IMG/VR virus record: IMGVR_UViG_3300025138_000048
Coordinates: 1 to 56,054 of that record
From: a virus
Taxonomy: Duplodnaviria > Caudoviricetes
Strand: one strand, 5' to 3'
DNA length: 56,054 nt
Both the position numbers and the translations under genes were made by a program. Each line of letters opens with the position of its first letter. The stretch's first letter is position 1. Below are positions 4,376 to 45,017 of this stretch, one piece after another. The notes beneath the pieces were generated by a model. That model saw nothing but the letters and a program-made list of their open reading frames with translations, was not told where the DNA came from and ran no database searches.

Positions 4376-4773
4376 ATTTAGAAGCACTATTTAACGCAGT
4401 TATTGTAAAACCTCTTGAAGTAGAGGAAGCAAAGTATGGATCAATTGTTGTACCAGATATTGGTAAAGACAAAAATGAACATGGAGAAGTTATAGCAGTA
4501 GGACCAGGTCAACATACAATATCAGGAACTTTTATTCATACTATTAGTAAAATAGGTGATATTGTTGTTTTACCTACACAAGGTTTTACAAAATTAGAAC
4601 ATGAAGGTGAAGATTATTATGTTGGGCCTGAAAATCAAATTTTAGCGAAAGTTAAAAAAGTAGTAGATGTTGAAGATATACTATCTGAAACAGACCCACT
4701 TACAGAATCAGAATTAATAAGTGAAGAAGAATTTAATAAGTTAGAAACTAAAGAAAAAACAGATAATGAATAA
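4372..4773 (+). CDS. groES: Co-chaperonin GroES with acidic C-terminal extension
   Basis: GSIVVPD mobile loop, GEVIAVGPG, KIGDIV, ENQILA; precedes groEL. Confidence 0.9.
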   Translation: MNLEALFNAVIVKPLEVEEAKYGSIVVPDIGKDKNEHGEVIAVGPGQHTISGTFIHTISKIGDIVVLPTQGFTKLEHEGEDYYVGPENQILAKVKKVVDVEDILSETDPLTESELISEEEFNKLETKEKTDNE

Positions 4774-6406
4774 AATTATAGAATTTGGCCCTGAAGGGAG
4801 AAAAAAATTAGTACAAGGTATTGATACTTTAGCTGATGCTGTTGTGTCAACGTTAGGACCTAATGGTAGAAATGTTGTTATTGAAAAAGAACATGGACAA
4901 GCACAATCTACTAAAGATGGTGTAACTGTAGCAAGACAAATTTCACTTAAAGACCCAGTTGAAAATTTAGGTGTAAATTTAGTTAAAGAAGCATCAATAA
5001 AAACAGCAGATAAAGCAGGTGATGGTACAACAACATCTACTTTATTAGCAAGAGAAATGATTAAAAGTGGTCTTAGTCATTTAAATAATGGGGCTAATGC
5101 TGTTGAAATTAAAAGAGAAATTGATAAAGCAGTCAAATCTATTGTTGGTGAGCTTCAAAGTAAAGTATCTGAAGATATATCAGAAGAGGGACAATTGGAA
5201 CAAGTAGCAACAATTTCAGCAAATAATGATCCTGAAGTTGGTAAACTTATAGCTACTGCAATTGAAAAGGTAGGTCATGAAGGAGTTGTTCATATTGAAG
5301 AAAGTAAATCAGGAGATACTTATCTTGAAACTGTGGAAGGTATGCAATTTGATAGAGGATATAAATCCCATTTCTTTGTAACTAATAATAGTACAATGAC
5401 TTCTACTTTAGAAGATGTTTCAATTCTTATTGTAGATCAAAAATTAACAGCAGTAAAAGAGTTACTTCCAATTTTAGAAAGTACAGCATCTCAAAATAAA
5501 TCATTATTAATTATAGCAGAAGATATTGATAATGAAGCATTAGCAACTTTAATTGTTAATAAGGGAAGAGGTACTATTAAAGCTTGTGCAGTAAAAGCAC
5601 CTGATTTTGGTGATAGAAGAAAATTAATATTAGAAGATATAGCTACTATTACTGGTGGTACTGTTTTTTCTAAAGAAAAAGGTCATAAATGGGATAAATT
5701 CCAACATGATTGGTTTGGTCAAGCTCGTACAGTTACAATTACTAAAGATAAAACAACTATTATTGATGGGAAAGGTAATGAAGATTTAGTAAATCAAAGA
5801 ATTGATGATCTAACAGCTCAAATTGAAGCAGCAGAAAGTGAGTTTGAAAGAGAACAATTACAAAGTAGGCTAGCTAGATTATGTGGTGGTGTTTCTATAA
5901 TTCATGTAGGTGGGTATACTGAAACTGAAATGAATGAAAAGAAAGATAGAGTAGATGATGCGTTACATGCAACTAAAGCAGCAATTGAAGAAGGAATTGT
6001 TCCTGGAGGTGGAGCTGCACTATTATATGCAAGAGAAATATTACCAGTTACAGATAAATGTAACCAAAATATAGGATCAGACATTGTATATAAAGCATGT
6101 GGGAAACCATTTGAACAAATACTTATAAATGCAGGGCATAATGCAGTTCAAGCCCAAATGGTAGGTAAGTATAGATTAGTTGATTCTGGAAATAATATGT
6201 GGGCAGGATATAATATTAAAACTGATGAAGTAGTTGATATGAAAGAAGCTGGAATTATTGATCCAACTAAAGTAACTAGGGTAGCATTAGAAAATGCAGC
6301 AGCTGTAGCTGGAACTGTATTACTTACAGAATGTATAGTAGTAAATGAACCTACAGATGAAAAACCACAACCACAAATAGATCCATCATCAATGATGGGA
6401 ATGTAA
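4766..6406 (+). CDS. groEL: Chaperonin GroEL
   Basis: TLGPNGRNV, TKDGVTVA, AGDGTTT, GMQFDRGY, KAPDFGDRRK, IVPGGG, IIDPTKV. Confidence 0.98.
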   Translation: MNKIIEFGPEGRKKLVQGIDTLADAVVSTLGPNGRNVVIEKEHGQAQSTKDGVTVARQISLKDPVENLGVNLVKEASIKTADKAGDGTTTSTLLAREMIKSGLSHLNNGANAVEIKREIDKAVKSIVGELQSKVSEDISEEGQLEQVATISANNDPEVGKLIATAIEKVGHEGVVHIEESKSGDTYLETVEGMQFDRGYKSHFFVTNNSTMTSTLEDVSILIVDQKLTAVKELLPILESTASQNKSLLIIAEDIDNEALATLIVNKGRGTIKACAVKAPDFGDRRKLILEDIATITGGTVFSKEKGHKWDKFQHDWFGQARTVTITKDKTTIIDGKGNEDLVNQRIDDLTAQIEAAESEFEREQLQSRLARLCGGVSIIHVGGYTETEMNEKKDRVDDALHATKAAIEEGIVPGGGAALLYAREILPVTDKCNQNIGSDIVYKACGKPFEQILINAGHNAVQAQMVGKYRLVDSGNNMWAGYNIKTDEVVDMKEAGIIDPTKVTRVALENAAAVAGTVLLTECIVVNEPTDEKPQPQIDPSSMMGM

Positions 6407-36280: not shown

Positions 36281-36825
<545 letters not shown>

Positions 36826-36838
36826 CAATTTTTTTATA

Positions 36839-39898: not shown

Positions 39899-40412
39899 AA
39901 AAATTATTTTATCACCAGTAGCTACTGGAAAGACAACGTTTATTAATAATAACCCATTAATAGCTTGTGGTGAGTGGCTTTCTACTTTTAATTATTATAA
40001 AAAAGGAATTCATATGGGTAGTACTGGAGCTGAAGTTCCTTCATCTCACCCCTTATATAAAAATTGGGAAAATCTATATAAAATAGGTGTTGAAAAATTT
40101 TATAATAGTGATAGTAAAATTATGATATATAATTGTCCTAATCATATTCCATGGTTAAAAAATGTTTATAATGATATTAAACTAGAGATAGTAATGGTTG
40201 ATGAGGATGAAAATTATAAAAGATACATTAAAAGATTAGATAATCATAAAGATAGTAAATTAACATTTAAAGAATTAATTAATATTAATTCATCACTGCT
40301 TAATAATAAATGGAGTTGGCAATGGATTTTGAATGAAAGAACAGAATATCAAAGATTATCTGACATATTTGATGTAAAAATTTATAAAACATTTGAAGAA
40401 GCCTGCGGATAA
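39891..40412 (+). CDS. P-loop NTPase/kinase-like protein
   Basis: IILSPVATGKTT. Confidence 0.55.
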   Translation: MSKKIILSPVATGKTTFINNNPLIACGEWLSTFNYYKKGIHMGSTGAEVPSSHPLYKNWENLYKIGVEKFYNSDSKIMIYNCPNHIPWLKNVYNDIKLEIVMVDEDENYKRYIKRLDNHKDSKLTFKELININSSLLNNKWSWQWILNERTEYQRLSDIFDVKIYKTFEEACG

Positions 40413-41336: not shown

Positions 41337-41666
41337 ATGTTTATAGGAAATAAAAGTAAAGGTTTTTGTATGACATTTGATAATGGGTTTGAAATATCTG
41401 TTCAATGGGGTACTATGAATTACTGTTCAAATAAAGGTCAAGGTGGTGTTGATGAGCATGAAATAACAGATAAATGGAAATCACCAACTGCTGAAATTAT
41501 GATATCACATGCAACACCAAATAATAATGATAATATAGACTTAGGTAATGGTGATAGAGTTGCTGGTTGGCTTAGCACTGATACAGTTGCTAAGTTAATT
41601 GGTGTGGTAAGCAGTGTTAAAAATGTAGATGAATTAAATTTATACTTAAAACAAATAAAATTATAA
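41337..41666 (+). CDS. Hypothetical phage protein
   Basis: F.NG..ISVQW...YC motif. Confidence 0.65.
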   Translation: MFIGNKSKGFCMTFDNGFEISVQWGTMNYCSNKGQGGVDEHEITDKWKSPTAEIMISHATPNNNDNIDLGNGDRVAGWLSTDTVAKLIGVVSSVKNVDELNLYLKQIKL

Positions 41667-41800
41667 TGGATAAGCGTATTAAAGAAGTATTATATAATGA
41701 ATTACATACTATACTTCAGTATGTTGAAGATGGTGGCAGAGATGAAGCTGTTGCTAAATTAGTTGATTTAATTAACAGGTTAAGTTTCGATAAAATATGA
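41666..41800 (+). CDS. Small hypothetical protein (44 aa, not in ORF track)
   Basis: MDKRIKEVLY...; coupled at both ends. Confidence 0.55.
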   Translation: MDKRIKEVLYNELHTILQYVEDGGRDEAVAKLVDLINRLSFDKI

Positions 41801-41964
41801 AAAAATTAGCAATAATAGGTGGTTTAAGTATGATGACAATGGGTGGTGGTTATATGATTCATCACAAACAGTCAATTACACCTAAATTTAATTTAAACCC
41901 AAACACATTAGCAATTGCTAGTGGTGGGTTTTTTGTAGCATTAGGTTTAACGTATAAATTTTAA
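41797..41964 (+). CDS. Small exported/membrane protein ending in a beta-signal-like LGLTYKF (55 aa, not in ORF track)
   Basis: MKKLAIIGG...FFVALGLTYKF. Confidence 0.55.
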   Translation: MKKLAIIGGLSMMTMGGGYMIHHKQSITPKFNLNPNTLAIASGGFFVALGLTYKF

Positions 41965-41965
41965 T

Positions 41966-42142
41966 ATGAGACGATCTTATCTTAATGCATATAATTTATT
42001 TGTAGGTAAAACTACAATTGATGAATTAGCAAATAAAGGTGAATTTTATTTACCTGTGGATCATGATAACAAAGATATGTTATTAGATTATTTTGAAGGT
42101 ACTGAAGAGTATGAAAAGTGTAGTGAATTAGTTAAAATATAA
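41966..42142 (+). CDS. Small protein with C-terminal EEYEKC motif (58 aa, not in ORF track)
   Basis: ...DYFEGTEEYEKCSELVKI. Confidence 0.65.
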   Translation: MRRSYLNAYNLFVGKTTIDELANKGEFYLPVDHDNKDMLLDYFEGTEEYEKCSELVKI

Positions 42143-42145
42143 ATA

Positions 42146-42229
42146 ATGAGTAAAGAATTAAAACAATCTATCGCCATAGTATTAGTTGGGATGATTTCCT
42201 TAATTGGTTTAATATTAATCTTTTTATAA
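42146..42229 (+). CDS. 27-aa single-TM micropeptide
   Basis: MSKELKQSIAIVLVGMISLIGLILIFL. Confidence 0.45.
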   Translation: MSKELKQSIAIVLVGMISLIGLILIFL

Positions 42230-42230
42230 A

Positions 42231-42383
42231 ATGAAGCGTAGATATAGAGGGTGTGAATTAGATTCACCAACATATAGACAAGTGGCAGCTGAAATGGCTA
42301 AAGAGCGTGCTAAACAGGGATTACATTCCACAATGAGCATGCCAATTAATGAGTATAAACCAAAACGTGGTAAACATAAATAA
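42231..42383 (+). CDS. Small basic protein (50 aa)
   Basis: MKRRYRGCELDS...KPKRGKHK tiles between its neighbours. Confidence 0.5.
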   Translation: MKRRYRGCELDSPTYRQVAAEMAKERAKQGLHSTMSMPINEYKPKRGKHK

Positions 42384-42384
42384 T

Positions 42385-42633
42385 ATGGCTAAACAATTAG
42401 ACAAAGACATGATGAGAATGATGTCTATAACCGAGCGATTTAAATATCAAAACGATCTCAAGCGTATGAGATTTAATATGAGTGAAATTAAAAAAGAGCA
42501 AGAAGAAGTTAAATCAAAATATACTCAATCAAACGAACCATGGATAGATGAGGATAGAAGTGAGTATGATGATTTCAGTGACGGTGGAGATAGGAATGAC
42601 AGTGGTAATGGGGATGATTCAAACGAATATTAA
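42385..42633 (+). CDS. Hypothetical protein with acidic tail
   Basis: ORF track 42349; ATG 42385 is the more likely start. Confidence 0.55.
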   Translation: MAKQLDKDMMRMMSITERFKYQNDLKRMRFNMSEIKKEQEEVKSKYTQSNEPWIDEDRSEYDDFSDGGDRNDSGNGDDSNEY

Positions 42634-42649
42634 TTAAAACTAAACGACG

Positions 42650-42808
42650 GTGGAGATATATTATGGTTTATTAGGTGTTCCGCTTTTATTCGCTTTTGCC
42701 TTTGCATGGTGTTGGATTGAAGAGCGTTCTAGGGCGAAGGCTAAACGTAAGTATGACAAACAGATGGCTAAGTATGACACGTGGCGAAGAATAAACAATG
42801 GTGTGTAA
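42650..42808 (+). CDS. Small membrane protein (52 aa, GTG start)
   Basis: YGLLGVPLLFAFAFAWCW TM segment followed by a basic tail. Confidence 0.45.
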   Translation: MEIYYGLLGVPLLFAFAFAWCWIEERSRAKAKRKYDKQMAKYDTWRRINNGV

Positions 42809-42974
42809 CAAACATACAATGGGGAATATAAACCGGAACTACACTCCCATTAACCCCTTGCCTGTGCGCATCCAACCCTTACACTAGGTAACGAATATAT
42901 ACTTATGAACCGCAAATCGCGACGCATGTTCACAAATGGTCACAAATAATGCGTGGAAAGCGTTGTGAACAATG

Positions 42975-43004
42975 CTTGGATACCGCAAAAATTGTTCGTA
43001 TATT
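42975..43004 (+). promoter_or_regulatory. Sigma-A-type promoter with no convincing downstream ORF
   Basis: CTTGG(42975)-N15-TTCGTATATT; preceded by the inverted repeat TGTTCACAA(42927)/TTGTGAACA(42963). Confidence 0.7.
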
Positions 43005-43009
43005 GGGGT

Positions 43010-43520
43010 ATAAGCAAAAAAGACGCGCATTATGTGGTGAATGGTGATGGACTATGTGGTAATGAGCGCGACGGTGGAGCAGACTACGACGGTGGACATT
43101 ACTATACCAGCACCTTAGCCGTACCTTATACTTACAATTACATATCCTTATTATACATTAATAGCTACTTACGTAGCACCTAGGTATACCTTGGTGGGTA
43201 CCTTATCGGTAATAATGCTCACCGCGGTATGAACTGGATTATATATCATCACCATAATATCCCCTACACACATATATAGAATAGCAGCCGCCGTACCGCG
43301 TACGTACATAATAATACCCACGGTGCGCGGATATCCATCGACGCGTGTATGTGCGTAAAAAGGTTGTAGCGGGCTTCATAGATCGTACACTAAAATAGAG
43401 CATCGATGGTATATACAAATATATGCTCATGCAAGCCCCGTAGTAAATAAAGGAATCAAAAAATCGTAGTGGCGCATTCGTAGAGTACTAAAAAATTTCA
43501 CTATCGACAATGTATATACT
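43010..43520 (+). other. GC-richer, palindrome-dense non-coding element (candidate ncRNA, origin or packaging region)
   Basis: Clear compositional shift, many perfect 6-10 bp palindromes, long-range complementary segments, no credible ORF. Confidence 0.6.
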
Positions 43521-43693
43521 TATATAAAACGGTTAATAGCAGAGTCATATGTAAATTGCTAGTAACAGCAGTTAAACACATATCTATCAATATGAAACAT
43601 AAAACAGACATCAGCCCTTTAATATATTTAATTATAATGGTTGTCGTATTTGCAACAGCACTTTAAAAGCTTTTGAAGGCTTCCGGTAAAGTA

Positions 43694-43761
43694 CTTGGTT
43701 CCCCGAAATATCTTTCGTATATTCACGGCATATTAATAATTAAAAACAAATAAAAGTTATG
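43694..43761 (+). promoter_or_regulatory. Early promoter and leader
   Basis: CTTGG(43694)-N15-TTCGTATATT; AAATAAAAGTTATG. Confidence 0.75.
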
Positions 43762-44574
43762 ATTAATTCAGATGATTTACAAACAGCAAAGTATTTAACT
43801 AAAGAAAATATTGCTTCACTTGCACCAGCAGTGTTTGCAACTAAACCAAGTAGTGATGTTTCGGAGAAATACACACACATTCCAACAGAAAGAGTTATTG
43901 ATGATATGGAATTATTAGGTTGGAAGCCAATTGAAGCAAAAGAGGTAAAAGCAAGAAAGAAATCAACTATGGGATTTCAAAAGCATTTATTAGTATTCAG
44001 AAATGATGATGTAGTAATTAATGGAGAAGATGGTGATACAGTATTTCCACAAATACTAATGACTAACTCTCATGATGGTAAAAATTCATTTACATTTGCC
44101 GCAGGTTTATATAGATTAATATGTTCAAATGGTCTTGTAATTGCAGATACAAAATTTGAAGACATTAAAATGCGTCATATGGGTTATACGTTTGAAGATC
44201 TTCAAGCATTAATTAAAGATATGGTTGAAAAATTACCTCTAACCGTAGAGTCAATGAATAGAATGAAAGCTACAGAAATGGAGGAACTTGCAATTTTAGA
44301 TTTTGCTAAAGAAGCTTTAAATACAAGGTTTACAAAGAAAGAAATGAATAGAATTCAAATCGATCTTAAAGAACTTACAAAGCCAGTTAGAAACGAAGAT
44401 AAAGGATCAGATCTTTGGTCAGTATTTAATGTAGTTCAAGAAAAAATCGTTACAGGTGATTTTGATTACACAATAGGTACTAAACATAGAAAAGCTCGTG
44501 AAATTAAAAACTTCAAGCAAGATATGAAGATTAATAAAGAGTTGTTTAAAGTAGCCTTAGAATATGCAGCATAA
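43759..44574 (+). CDS. DUF932/DUF945-family phage/plasmid protein
   Basis: KYTHIPT, NSHDG, GLYRLICSNGL, LWSVFNVVQE. Confidence 0.85.
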   Translation: MINSDDLQTAKYLTKENIASLAPAVFATKPSSDVSEKYTHIPTERVIDDMELLGWKPIEAKEVKARKKSTMGFQKHLLVFRNDDVVINGEDGDTVFPQILMTNSHDGKNSFTFAAGLYRLICSNGLVIADTKFEDIKMRHMGYTFEDLQALIKDMVEKLPLTVESMNRMKATEMEELAILDFAKEALNTRFTKKEMNRIQIDLKELTKPVRNEDKGSDLWSVFNVVQEKIVTGDFDYTIGTKHRKAREIKNFKQDMKINKELFKVALEYAA

Positions 44575-44992
44575 GGATATTATTTGGGTTAATGGAACGT
44601 TTGATGTGCTCCACATGGGGCATGTCAAACTCTTCCAAAAAGCACATGAAATAGCATGTGAAGAATTTAGAAGTTTTAGTTGGAAGATAGTAGTTGGAAT
44701 TGATACGGATGAGAGAATAAGAGAAGCAAAAGGAGTAGGTAGGCCAGTTAATACATTGAAAAATAGAATGGAATTTCTCCACGCGATAAGATATGTGGAT
44801 GAAGTTCATGCATTTTATAGTGATGGAATGTTAGATGAATTAATAAGAATAAATGCCCCTAAATTTATGGTTATAGGAGATGATTATATTGGAAAACCAA
44901 TTATAGGAAGTGAGCATATAGGTGAAATAGTTTACGTACCTCGCTATGAAGGTTTGAGCTCTTCGGCTATTATAAATGGAGCCCACAACTAG
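44564..44992 (+). CDS. Cytidylyltransferase-family nucleotidyltransferase (HldE/RfaE domain II-like)
   Basis: NGTFDVLHMGH (HxGH), VVGIDTD, KGVGRPVN, GDDY, SSSAII. Confidence 0.88.
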   Translation: MQHKDIIWVNGTFDVLHMGHVKLFQKAHEIACEEFRSFSWKIVVGIDTDERIREAKGVGRPVNTLKNRMEFLHAIRYVDEVHAFYSDGMLDELIRINAPKFMVIGDDYIGKPIIGSEHIGEIVYVPRYEGLSSSAIINGAHN

Positions 44993-45017
44993 CATATATT
45001 TATAACAAAATTTCAGC

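Follow-up and report, generated by a model that had tools for sequence, protein, structure and literature searches.

A conserved single-copy island of alternating, CpG-rich DNA with tandem bipartite sites in an uncultured T4-like marine phage

We analyzed a 56,054-base IMG/VR virus record (hereafter the window), estimated to be 35% complete, and focused on a tract without a credible gene that lies upstream of a DUF932 gene. Part of this tract, positions 43157-43520, had been described in an earlier note on the same DNA as a "natural polylinker", a dense cluster of differing perfect palindromes. Beneath this cluster lies a genuine and compositionally unusual feature, a conserved island of alternating, CpG-rich DNA that is present in single copy and carries tandem bipartite sites. 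Judged from sequence, the likeliest roles for the element are those of a replication origin or a master regulatory site.

Composition and conserved core of the island

The locus is laid out as follows, with coordinates in the window (nt, nucleotides; aa, amino acids; ORF, open reading frame).

42750..43550, no strand assigned: island of purine/pyrimidine alternation with raised GC and CpG, containing the palindrome cluster 43157-43520.
42810..43592, no strand assigned: tract without a credible gene, from ORF lists and six-frame translations.
43281..43426, + strand: conserved non-coding core of ~146 nt, one copy per genome, located with nhmmer.
43337..43354, + strand: P0, first copy of the pattern ATCGR-N2-6-GTRTRTRC (ATCGACGCGTGTATGTGC); the longest alternating run, 17 nt, begins at 43341.
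43402..43424, + strand: P1, the best-conserved site (ATCGAT-GG-GTATATAC-AAATATAT), which includes the palindromes CATCGATG and GTATATAC of the earlier note.
43503..43527, + strand: P2, second full copy (ATCGACAAT-GTATATAC-TTATATAA), 101 nt after P1.
43540..43758, + strand: AT-rich tract (GC 0.25-0.33) downstream of the sites, with a small ORF and a host-type promoter.
43759..44574, + strand: DUF932 gene (Pfam PF06067, E 4.5e-32), the conserved downstream neighbour.

Across the ~800 nt of the island, alternation of purines and pyrimidines reaches 0.60-0.67 in 300-nt windows, compared with 0.477 ± 0.038 elsewhere, and the 13 highest-alternation 300-nt windows of the whole record all fall inside it. 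The observed/expected ratio of CpG is 1.59 in the island and 0.43 in the genome, and GC rises from a background of about 0.28 to 0.37-0.48. Each of the four self-complementary dinucleotides is enriched (TA 1.68, CG 1.59, AT 1.47, GC 1.33), and their fraction likewise peaks at the island; GA (0.47) and TT (0.44) are depleted. The three longest alternating runs of the region measure 17, 14, and 14 nt, which makes them the first, fourth, and fifth longest of the window; they hold several TA steps and all lie in conserved blocks.

This composition was also observed in relatives. In G001, a complete 164-kb relative, the 11 highest-alternation windows of 300 nt all come from the homologous locus (0.657 vs. 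0.470 ± 0.034), which also has the highest CpG ratio. The homologous locus of G002, a near-complete relative of ~160 kb, is the genome-wide alternation maximum (0.637); the sole other peak in G002, the second-highest, is a coding tandem repeat in a 994-aa protein (55499-58483 of the reverse complement, with many tandem ~35-aa repeats of the form ...FNYDPNANTDD.SCIP.VYGCTD...). Upstream sequence sufficed for this comparison at 55 related loci; in 27 of them alternation reaches at least 0.62 in some window, always upstream of DUF932.

The core was found by nhmmer in 31 of the 81 sequences searched, always on the + strand and upstream of DUF932, at a distance of ~0.35 to 3.7 kb, with a single match in each of G001 and G002. 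Its identity to the window is 0.52-0.78 across relatives, and in 14/14 diverse representatives it shows alternation of 0.59-0.70 and a CpG observed/expected ratio of 1.55-2.32. In 21 of 22 pairs, core identity is higher than that at the third codon positions of DUF932, and, again in 21 of 22, it is lower than that at the first and second positions combined, so the core appears to be under moderate purifying selection. One relative, L056, has 0.78 identity in the core and 0.61 in the DUF932 protein, a mismatch that makes the locus a mosaic. The most conserved core blocks are GTAC-GCGTACG, CCCAC, TCCAT, GCGTG, ATCG, and, above all, CATCGAT-N-GTATATAC-N-ATAT. The nearest cultured phage, Flavobacterium phage vB_FspM_immuto (46% amino-acid identity on the DUF932 protein), has no core, no bipartite motif, and no comparable alternation peak (maximum 0.603).

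The last of these blocks belongs to a bipartite site that joins a near-palindromic ATCGAT half to a GTATATAC-type half. Three same-strand sites of the pattern occur in the window (43337, 43402, and 43503) where 0.01 would be expected, an optimistic estimate of chance given that the pattern was written after viewing the data. In three near-complete relatives the motif occurs at this locus only, and a reversed control pattern gave 0 matches. Strict P1 is present in 26 of 29 distinct relatives, and P2 in 22, where it follows P1 by 72-139 nt; the tandem arrangement is kept even in distant relatives. P0 is looser than P1, lies 65 nt upstream of it, and is strict in eight of the 29; most relatives without a strict P0 have TCGC... 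at its position. A search of 185,579 species genomes with the P1 pattern returned 74 matches, about chance by rough estimate. The whole core was held by one of the 74, a 1016-nt contig (L176) in a Desulfobulbaceae metagenome-assembled genome. A host-derived core was rejected on this basis, and L176 is probably a stray phage fragment binned with a bacterial genome.

A protein-coding gene, including a stop-recoded one, was rejected for the tract. No open frame is shared among relatives in any of six frames, and column conservation and entropy are flat with respect to codon phase. The core has compensated +1/-1 indels, and the in-frame stops among members include TAA and TGA beside TAG, which rules out simple TAG recoding. 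Base period-3 is absent from the core (z -0.7) and present in 42953-43290 (z 3.0 and 3.8). Stop triplets are rarer in alternating DNA on both strands (0.117 vs. 0.159), and misleading open frames therefore arise in the tract.

A structured non-coding RNA fared no better. Rfam gave nothing in 41500-45000 at E <= 1 and, at gathering thresholds, only a tRNA-Ala in the whole window. RNAalifold consensus folds reached -2.6, -0.6, and -9.4 kcal/mol, with double changes in 2 of 32 pairs, and fold z-scores of 0.01, -0.47, and -0.04 equal those of shuffles on both strands. The RNA kissing sites proposed in the earlier note find no fold or covariation signal on either strand. With DNA parameters the folds had z-scores of +0.65 (+ strand) and +1.90 (- strand), indicating no extensive intrastrand pairing, and an Frpo/ssi-type single-strand promoter or hairpin element was rejected on these values. 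A protelomerase target or cruciform was likewise rejected, as the longest perfect palindrome is 10 nt and ten-mers occur at chance level.

Palindrome density and its origin

The 18 palindromes listed in the earlier note were all confirmed in position, and 11 of the 18 words occur only once in the window: ACCTAGGT, AGGTATACCT, ACCGCGGT, CGTACG, GTACGTAC, GGATATCC, ACGCGT, CATCGATG, TGCGCA, TCGCGA, and AAAAGCTTTT. In 43157-43520 there are 21 six-base palindromes, 15 of them distinct, compared with a window mean of 7.5 ± 2.9 per 364 nt. This segment ranks second in the window, and 39951-40314 also has 21.

The degree to which this density is unusual depends on the null model, and the following shuffle figures are uncorrected for the segment having been chosen after viewing. 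Mononucleotide shuffles of 43157-43520 average 6.1 six-mers and never reach 21 (0/2000), while dinucleotide-preserving shuffles average 11.6 and reach 21 in 15 of 2000. Eight-mer palindromes number 8 vs. a dinucleotide expectation of 3.4 (80/2000). Dinucleotides account for all of the four-mers (44 vs. 40.8; 605/2000), and ten-mers are at chance level (1 vs. 0.96). An AT-rich coding stretch, 39951-40314, shows an equal excess (21 vs. 11.7 expected; 14/2000). Most of the excess is therefore due to local dinucleotide content, in which TA, CG, AT, and GC are all enriched, and purine/pyrimidine alternation automatically raises the count of short palindromes. The remaining genome is mildly palindrome-poor, at 0.88-0.91 of Markov expectation.

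Palindromicity was also compared in the homologous 364 nt of 25 sequences, which hold 8-28 palindromes against dinucleotide expectations of 8-17. While 22 of the 25 lie above expectation (1 is equal and 2 are below), only 6 do so clearly, with counts reached by at most 2% of 300 shuffles. The excess over dinucleotide expectation is ~1.8-fold in the window and ~1.4-fold on average across relatives. Individual sites vary widely in their conservation: CGTACG (20/26), GTATATAC (22/26), and ACCGCGGT (5/8) are kept and ATCGAT is near-invariant, while ACCTAGGT (1/8), AGGTATACCT (1/8), GGATATCC (0/26), ATTAAT (0/8), and GGTACC (0/8) are not. Thus, the elevated density holds against mononucleotide shuffles but is small against dinucleotide shuffles and matched by a coding stretch, and its persistence in relatives is general in direction but clear in few of them. 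Although the palindrome density is real, it is not unique to this segment and does not rise far beyond local dinucleotide expectation, and "natural polylinker" overstates it. The palindromes are mostly a by-product of the alternating, CpG-rich composition.

Flanks, neighbouring genes, and the source genome

Further features around the island, and two elsewhere in the window, are listed here.

42650-42808: 52-aa ORF bordering the gene-free tract on the left.
42953-43183: 76-aa ORF with no family match and no frame conserved in relatives.
43118-43136 and 43290-43308: 19-nt repeat.
43121, 43198, and 43293 (43121..43297), + strand: three same-strand GTACC copies, then a pyrimidine-rich step.
43164..43177, + strand: hairpin-capable dyad GCTAC-TTAC-GTAGC, which holds the palindromes TAGCTA and TACGTA of the earlier note.
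43593-43667: 24-aa hydrophobic small ORF (MKHKTDISPLIYLIIMVVVFATAL) between the element and the DUF932 promoter.
43694-43725: host-type promoter for the DUF932 gene, one change from TTTGG-N-TTCGTATATTTA.
4766-6406: GroEL-like chaperonin gene (Cpn60_TCP1, E 7e-67).
36752-36826: tRNA-Ala(TGC), wedged between ORFs, the sole tRNA or tmRNA found in the window.

Upstream of the core, 200 nt hardly align between lineages (median 41% matches), yet alternation in this poorly alignable sequence is at least 0.58 in 11 of 14 representatives, the three exceptions being coding there. The strand-biased words of the locus sit in this flank. When 14 diverse relatives were pooled, CGTACC was found 9 times vs. 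1 for its reverse complement, and GTACCT 11 times vs. 1. The pooled pyrimidine-purine (YR) steps gave a period-3 signal (z 5.9) that comes from coding flanks in some relatives. The dyad at 43164-43177 is the only helix changed on both sides, by a GC-to-AU swap in 2 of 9 sequences, which is weak evidence.

Traces of genes are also found on this side. Positions 42810-42952 resemble a small ORF that is intact in relatives L017 and L020 (67-80 aa, ...GNINQN..NPFIPR.QPLPIGTSIYYEPQSKR...) and that is broken by TAG and TGA in the window; this segment looks like a remnant of that ORF. One group of relatives has a 166-172-aa gene (MLKNFK...) directly upstream of the element (L005 2841-3359, L012 2360-2860, L016 1593-2099, L018 2834-3334, L027 2818-3336), which is absent from the window. 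Its product has an early conserved Cys and a late conserved His and is peptidase-like at a glance, with no Pfam or NCBIfam match. As a separate observation, CGACGGTGGAG, which in frame would read Asp-Gly-Gly, occurs in four copies (42579, 42645, 43069, and 43087). Two belong to small upstream ORFs, lying inside them or at their starts, and the other two fall within the doubtful 76-aa ORF.

Downstream of the element, the 24-aa ORF may encode a small membrane peptide. The DUF932 promoter belongs to a recurrent cassette of ~32-55 nt, TTTGG-N19-20-TTCGTATATTTA, which is always on the + strand and has similar copies in relatives. Seven strict matches were found in the window (21909, 26610, 29400, 29843, 33307, 40414, and 45793). 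We take the cassette to fit the Bacteroidetes -33/-7 promoter type, and it is probably the early promoter family of the phage; a late-type box, ATATTTATA, precedes structural genes. No promoter of either class was recognisable upstream of the core, and a scan for Sigma-70-type promoters and terminators stayed at chance level. A search of the ESM Atlas with DUF932 gave nothing beyond DUF932 itself. Among the titles listed by literature searches on DUF932 and on phage purine-pyrimidine sequence, Z-DNA, or origins, none was relevant.

The source of the window is a marine, uncultured, T4-like myovirus of ~160 kb with hosts of Flavobacteriia type. The window has a GC of ~28%, carries all sizeable ORFs on the + strand, and encodes a family B DNA polymerase, glycosyltransferases, an ATP-dependent ligase, and baseplate wedge proteins in addition to the chaperonin. 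No match was found by nucleotide similarity in 50,697 phage records in near or distant modes, and DNA sequencing runs from seven studies each contain at least half of the window's sampled words. We confirmed 108 DUF932 relatives in viral contigs, some of them 158-164 kb long. For G001, a Pfam map was built from 107 of the 115 ORFs of at least 150 aa, omitting 7 ORFs that cross chunk borders and 1 giant ORF. It contains, on one strand, a T4-like set of gp32, a RecA/UvsX-like protein, a DnaB-type helicase, a gp44 clamp loader, a gp17-type terminase, a gp20 portal, a gp23 capsid protein, and a tail sheath. Practically all genes of G001, G002, and the window lie on one strand, and the cumulative GC skew climbs monotonically.

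G001 also carries QueD (PTPS), QueE-like radical SAM, and FolE (GTP cyclohydrolase I) domains by Pfam, and QueC was found in 3 of 4 records searched. These genes of the 7-deazaguanine pathway are grouped at 17-26 kb in G001 and also in G002 and G003; the window record excludes that part of the genome. No Pfam TGT/DpdA domain was found in the four records searched. A preprint describes immuto as replacing all its G with a formylated preQ1 (7-deazaguanine) derivative (bioRxiv 10.1101/2023.04.13.536721). On the strength of its pathway genes only, the clade of the source phage probably makes a 7-deazaguanine DNA modification.

Possible function and comparison with known systems

We observed an element that is unique, conserved, free of coding and folding signals, and built of repeated sites, and from this we infer protein binding and a role as an origin. 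Our favoured but tentative reading is that the core region may be a protein-assembly site for the initiation of phage DNA replication. One or more sequence-specific proteins, probably dimeric, would land and assemble on it as double-stranded DNA. The tandem bipartite sites with the adjoining, easily melted AT-rich tract would correspond to an iteron- or tandem-site-type origin. The site words are very rare elsewhere in this AT-rich, CpG-poor genome, and rare words are a natural way of making a site unique. In the G001 map the locus falls in the replication/repair half of the genome, with a ligase gene 3 kb upstream and UvdE 2 kb downstream. Among the proposals of the earlier note, sites for dimeric DNA-binding proteins or an origin-type structure remain viable, and the reading given here is a sharper version of them.

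Several observations weigh against it. The neighbours (DUF932, a cytidylyltransferase-like protein, and small ORFs) have no match to a Rep or initiator family, a PDB profile search found no solved relative of DUF932, and in distant relatives 1-3 kb of other genes stand between the core and DUF932. The sites themselves are not uniform: strict P0 is confined to the minority of relatives given above, P2 is missing from 7 of the 29, and the pattern that unites them was defined post hoc. The spacing of P1 and P2 varies as noted, so there is no fixed helical phasing, and no 10-11-nt rhythm was detected in conservation or in TA, YR, AA/TT, CG, or GC steps. The AT-rich tract is not distinctive because the whole genome has a GC of ~0.28, and skew is uninformative about an origin, since every gene is on the same strand. 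None of the window's 19 one-mismatch matches to DnaA boxes (TTATCCACA-like) falls inside 42810-43760, and their total is below chance expectation; a host DnaA-dependent origin was rejected, as the region holds no DnaA-box cluster. Finally, because immuto does without the element, it is not essential to the wider group.

The main rival to an origin is a transcriptional control region, which we regard as unlikely though worth serious attention. A phage regulator or sigma-like factor would then use the tandem sites as operators or special promoters, and expression would be switched where the replication module gives way to the DUF932 block and, beyond it, the structural genes. Such a role would suit an element that stands between modules in a genome transcribed one way and whose sites are dyad-like and tandem, and the TCG...TATAT part resembles the TTCGTATATTTA box of the recurrent host-type promoters. 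However, the motif is neither of the early type (TTTGG-N-TTCGTATATTTA) nor the late-type box (ATATTTATA), it occurs at one locus only, and DUF932 has its own ordinary promoter downstream. The 800 nt of alternating composition would also be left unexplained.

We consider it distinctly improbable that the island has no dedicated function and consists of decayed gene remnants and a recombination joint between conserved and hypervariable segments, its odd composition being a legacy of lost genes with many Tyr, Gly, Val, and Arg codons. The broken small ORF at 42810-42952, the base period-3 of 42953-43290, the 166-172-aa gene that one group has here and the window lacks, and the differing histories of core and DUF932 in L056 are all consistent with such decay. 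So are the contig ends: of 30 contigs with P1, 14 stop within 1200 nt on the upstream side and none within the same distance downstream. The core itself is harder to explain this way, since it has neither period-3 nor a frame, is more conserved than third codon positions in nearly all pairs, and persists in lineages with differing flanks, always as one copy and in one orientation.

Marginally less probable still is an unstructured or long leader RNA that would act by sequence as a primer, antisense, or sponge. Conservation is strand-consistent, words such as CGTACC are strand-biased, and the neighbouring genes are all transcribed in the same direction. In metatranscriptome contigs from three RNA runs, the neighbouring genes and 42656-42972, just upstream, are covered (the latter by reads of one RNA library) at a depth of 2-6, with no coverage over 42974-43643, a gap that at this depth and from contigs only is uninformative either way. 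The lack of a fold, covariation, or Rfam match and of a recognisable promoter before the core speaks against such an RNA.

Two further proposals rest on the duplex itself. It is improbable, but would be of interest as a new kind of phage cis-element, that selection acts on duplex character and not on any one sequence, the character being a combination of alternation, a paucity of A-tracts, and closely packed CpG and TA steps. The persistence of alternation in unalignable flanks would then be explained. If true, the island would be the part of the genome most densely loaded with modified bases, genomic G being probably a 7-deazaguanine derivative, and a supercoil- or modification-sensitive switch could license the start of replication or the switching of gene modules. 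We give even less credence to a non-B DNA device in which negative supercoiling would convert the alternating runs to a Z-type or another altered form, so that they would serve as a torsional sensor or sink for a genome transcribed one way. The 17-, 14-, and 14-nt runs do lie in conserved blocks, and alternation is kept where sequence is not, but these are short runs with a high content of TA steps, which are poor formers of Z-DNA. Perfect palindromes of at most 10 nt are too short for cruciforms, and a 7-deazaguanine substitution, if present, might change the energetics.

A pac- or cos-type packaging start site or a physical genome end is very unlikely, and the terminase role raised by the earlier note, like a terminus role, is unlikely. 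The site is unique, GC-rich, and dyad-rich, and 8 of the 30 P1 contigs begin 4-184 nt upstream of P1. However, contig starts are scattered rather than fixed, and the breaks coincide with the junction of conserved core and hypervariable flank, a kind of junction that breaks metagenome assemblies anyway. Near-identical ~164-kb contigs place the element variously, which points to circular or permuted assemblies, and the large terminase gene is 48 kb away in G001. T4-like phages package by the headful without a unique site. The least credible of all is the lead idea of the earlier note, a decoy or sensing array for restriction-modification enzymes: many different type II-like palindromes do fall within 364 nt of a genome that is otherwise mildly palindrome-poor, but most are unconserved, their modest excess is equalled in a coding stretch, no mechanism is known by which decoy sites in cis, cleaved or uncleaved, would protect a genome, and relatives carry the 7-deazaguanine pathway, so that G-containing sites would be poor restriction targets if the phage's G is modified.

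For nearly every uncultured marine phage, this widespread group of flavobacterial myoviruses among them, the origins and master control sites have yet to be mapped. A single-copy conserved non-coding landmark with defined short sites is a concrete bench target for footprinting, and the core profile can tag this locus in fragmentary contigs. Two cautions for sequence scans also follow from the analysis: a "polylinker" of differing palindromes can come from dinucleotide composition alone, and purine/pyrimidine alternation strips stop triplets and leaves spurious open frames.

Among known systems, the pac site of phage P1 and oriC-type GATC clusters resemble this locus in packing short palindromes densely into a unique cis-acting site. 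In those clusters a single site, read by a known methylase, is repeated, while the palindromes here are nearly all different and most are unconserved. T4-type PeSL cassettes are likewise conserved non-coding DNA edging variable gene cassettes, and this phage too has a recurrent promoter cassette of ~55 nt; PeSL cassettes are multicopy, whereas the core is single-copy and has no recognisable promoter or stem-loop.

Iteron-type origins (lambda ori, P1 oriR, and T4 oriE) also consist of a single-copy non-coding region in which a ~17-20-bp site with internal dyad symmetry recurs on one strand beside an AT-rich tract, though the tract at the present locus is not distinctive. The present locus differs in having 2-3 copies at irregular spacing (about 65 and 101 nt; 72-139 nt in relatives), no recognisable adjacent initiator gene, and no DnaA boxes. 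Its sites are embedded in ~800 nt of alternating, high-CpG DNA, which to our knowledge is not a described origin feature. The promoter-type origins of T7 and T4 form a second point of comparison. In the primary origin of T7 an AT-rich tract lies beyond a pair of tandem promoters, and T4 oriF and oriG combine a promoter with an unwinding element that forms an R-loop primer. P1 and P2 are unlike the early and late promoters of this phage and occur at a single locus, but the order of tandem short sites and then an AT-rich tract is shared, here in a phage with a T4-like replisome and recombination genes.

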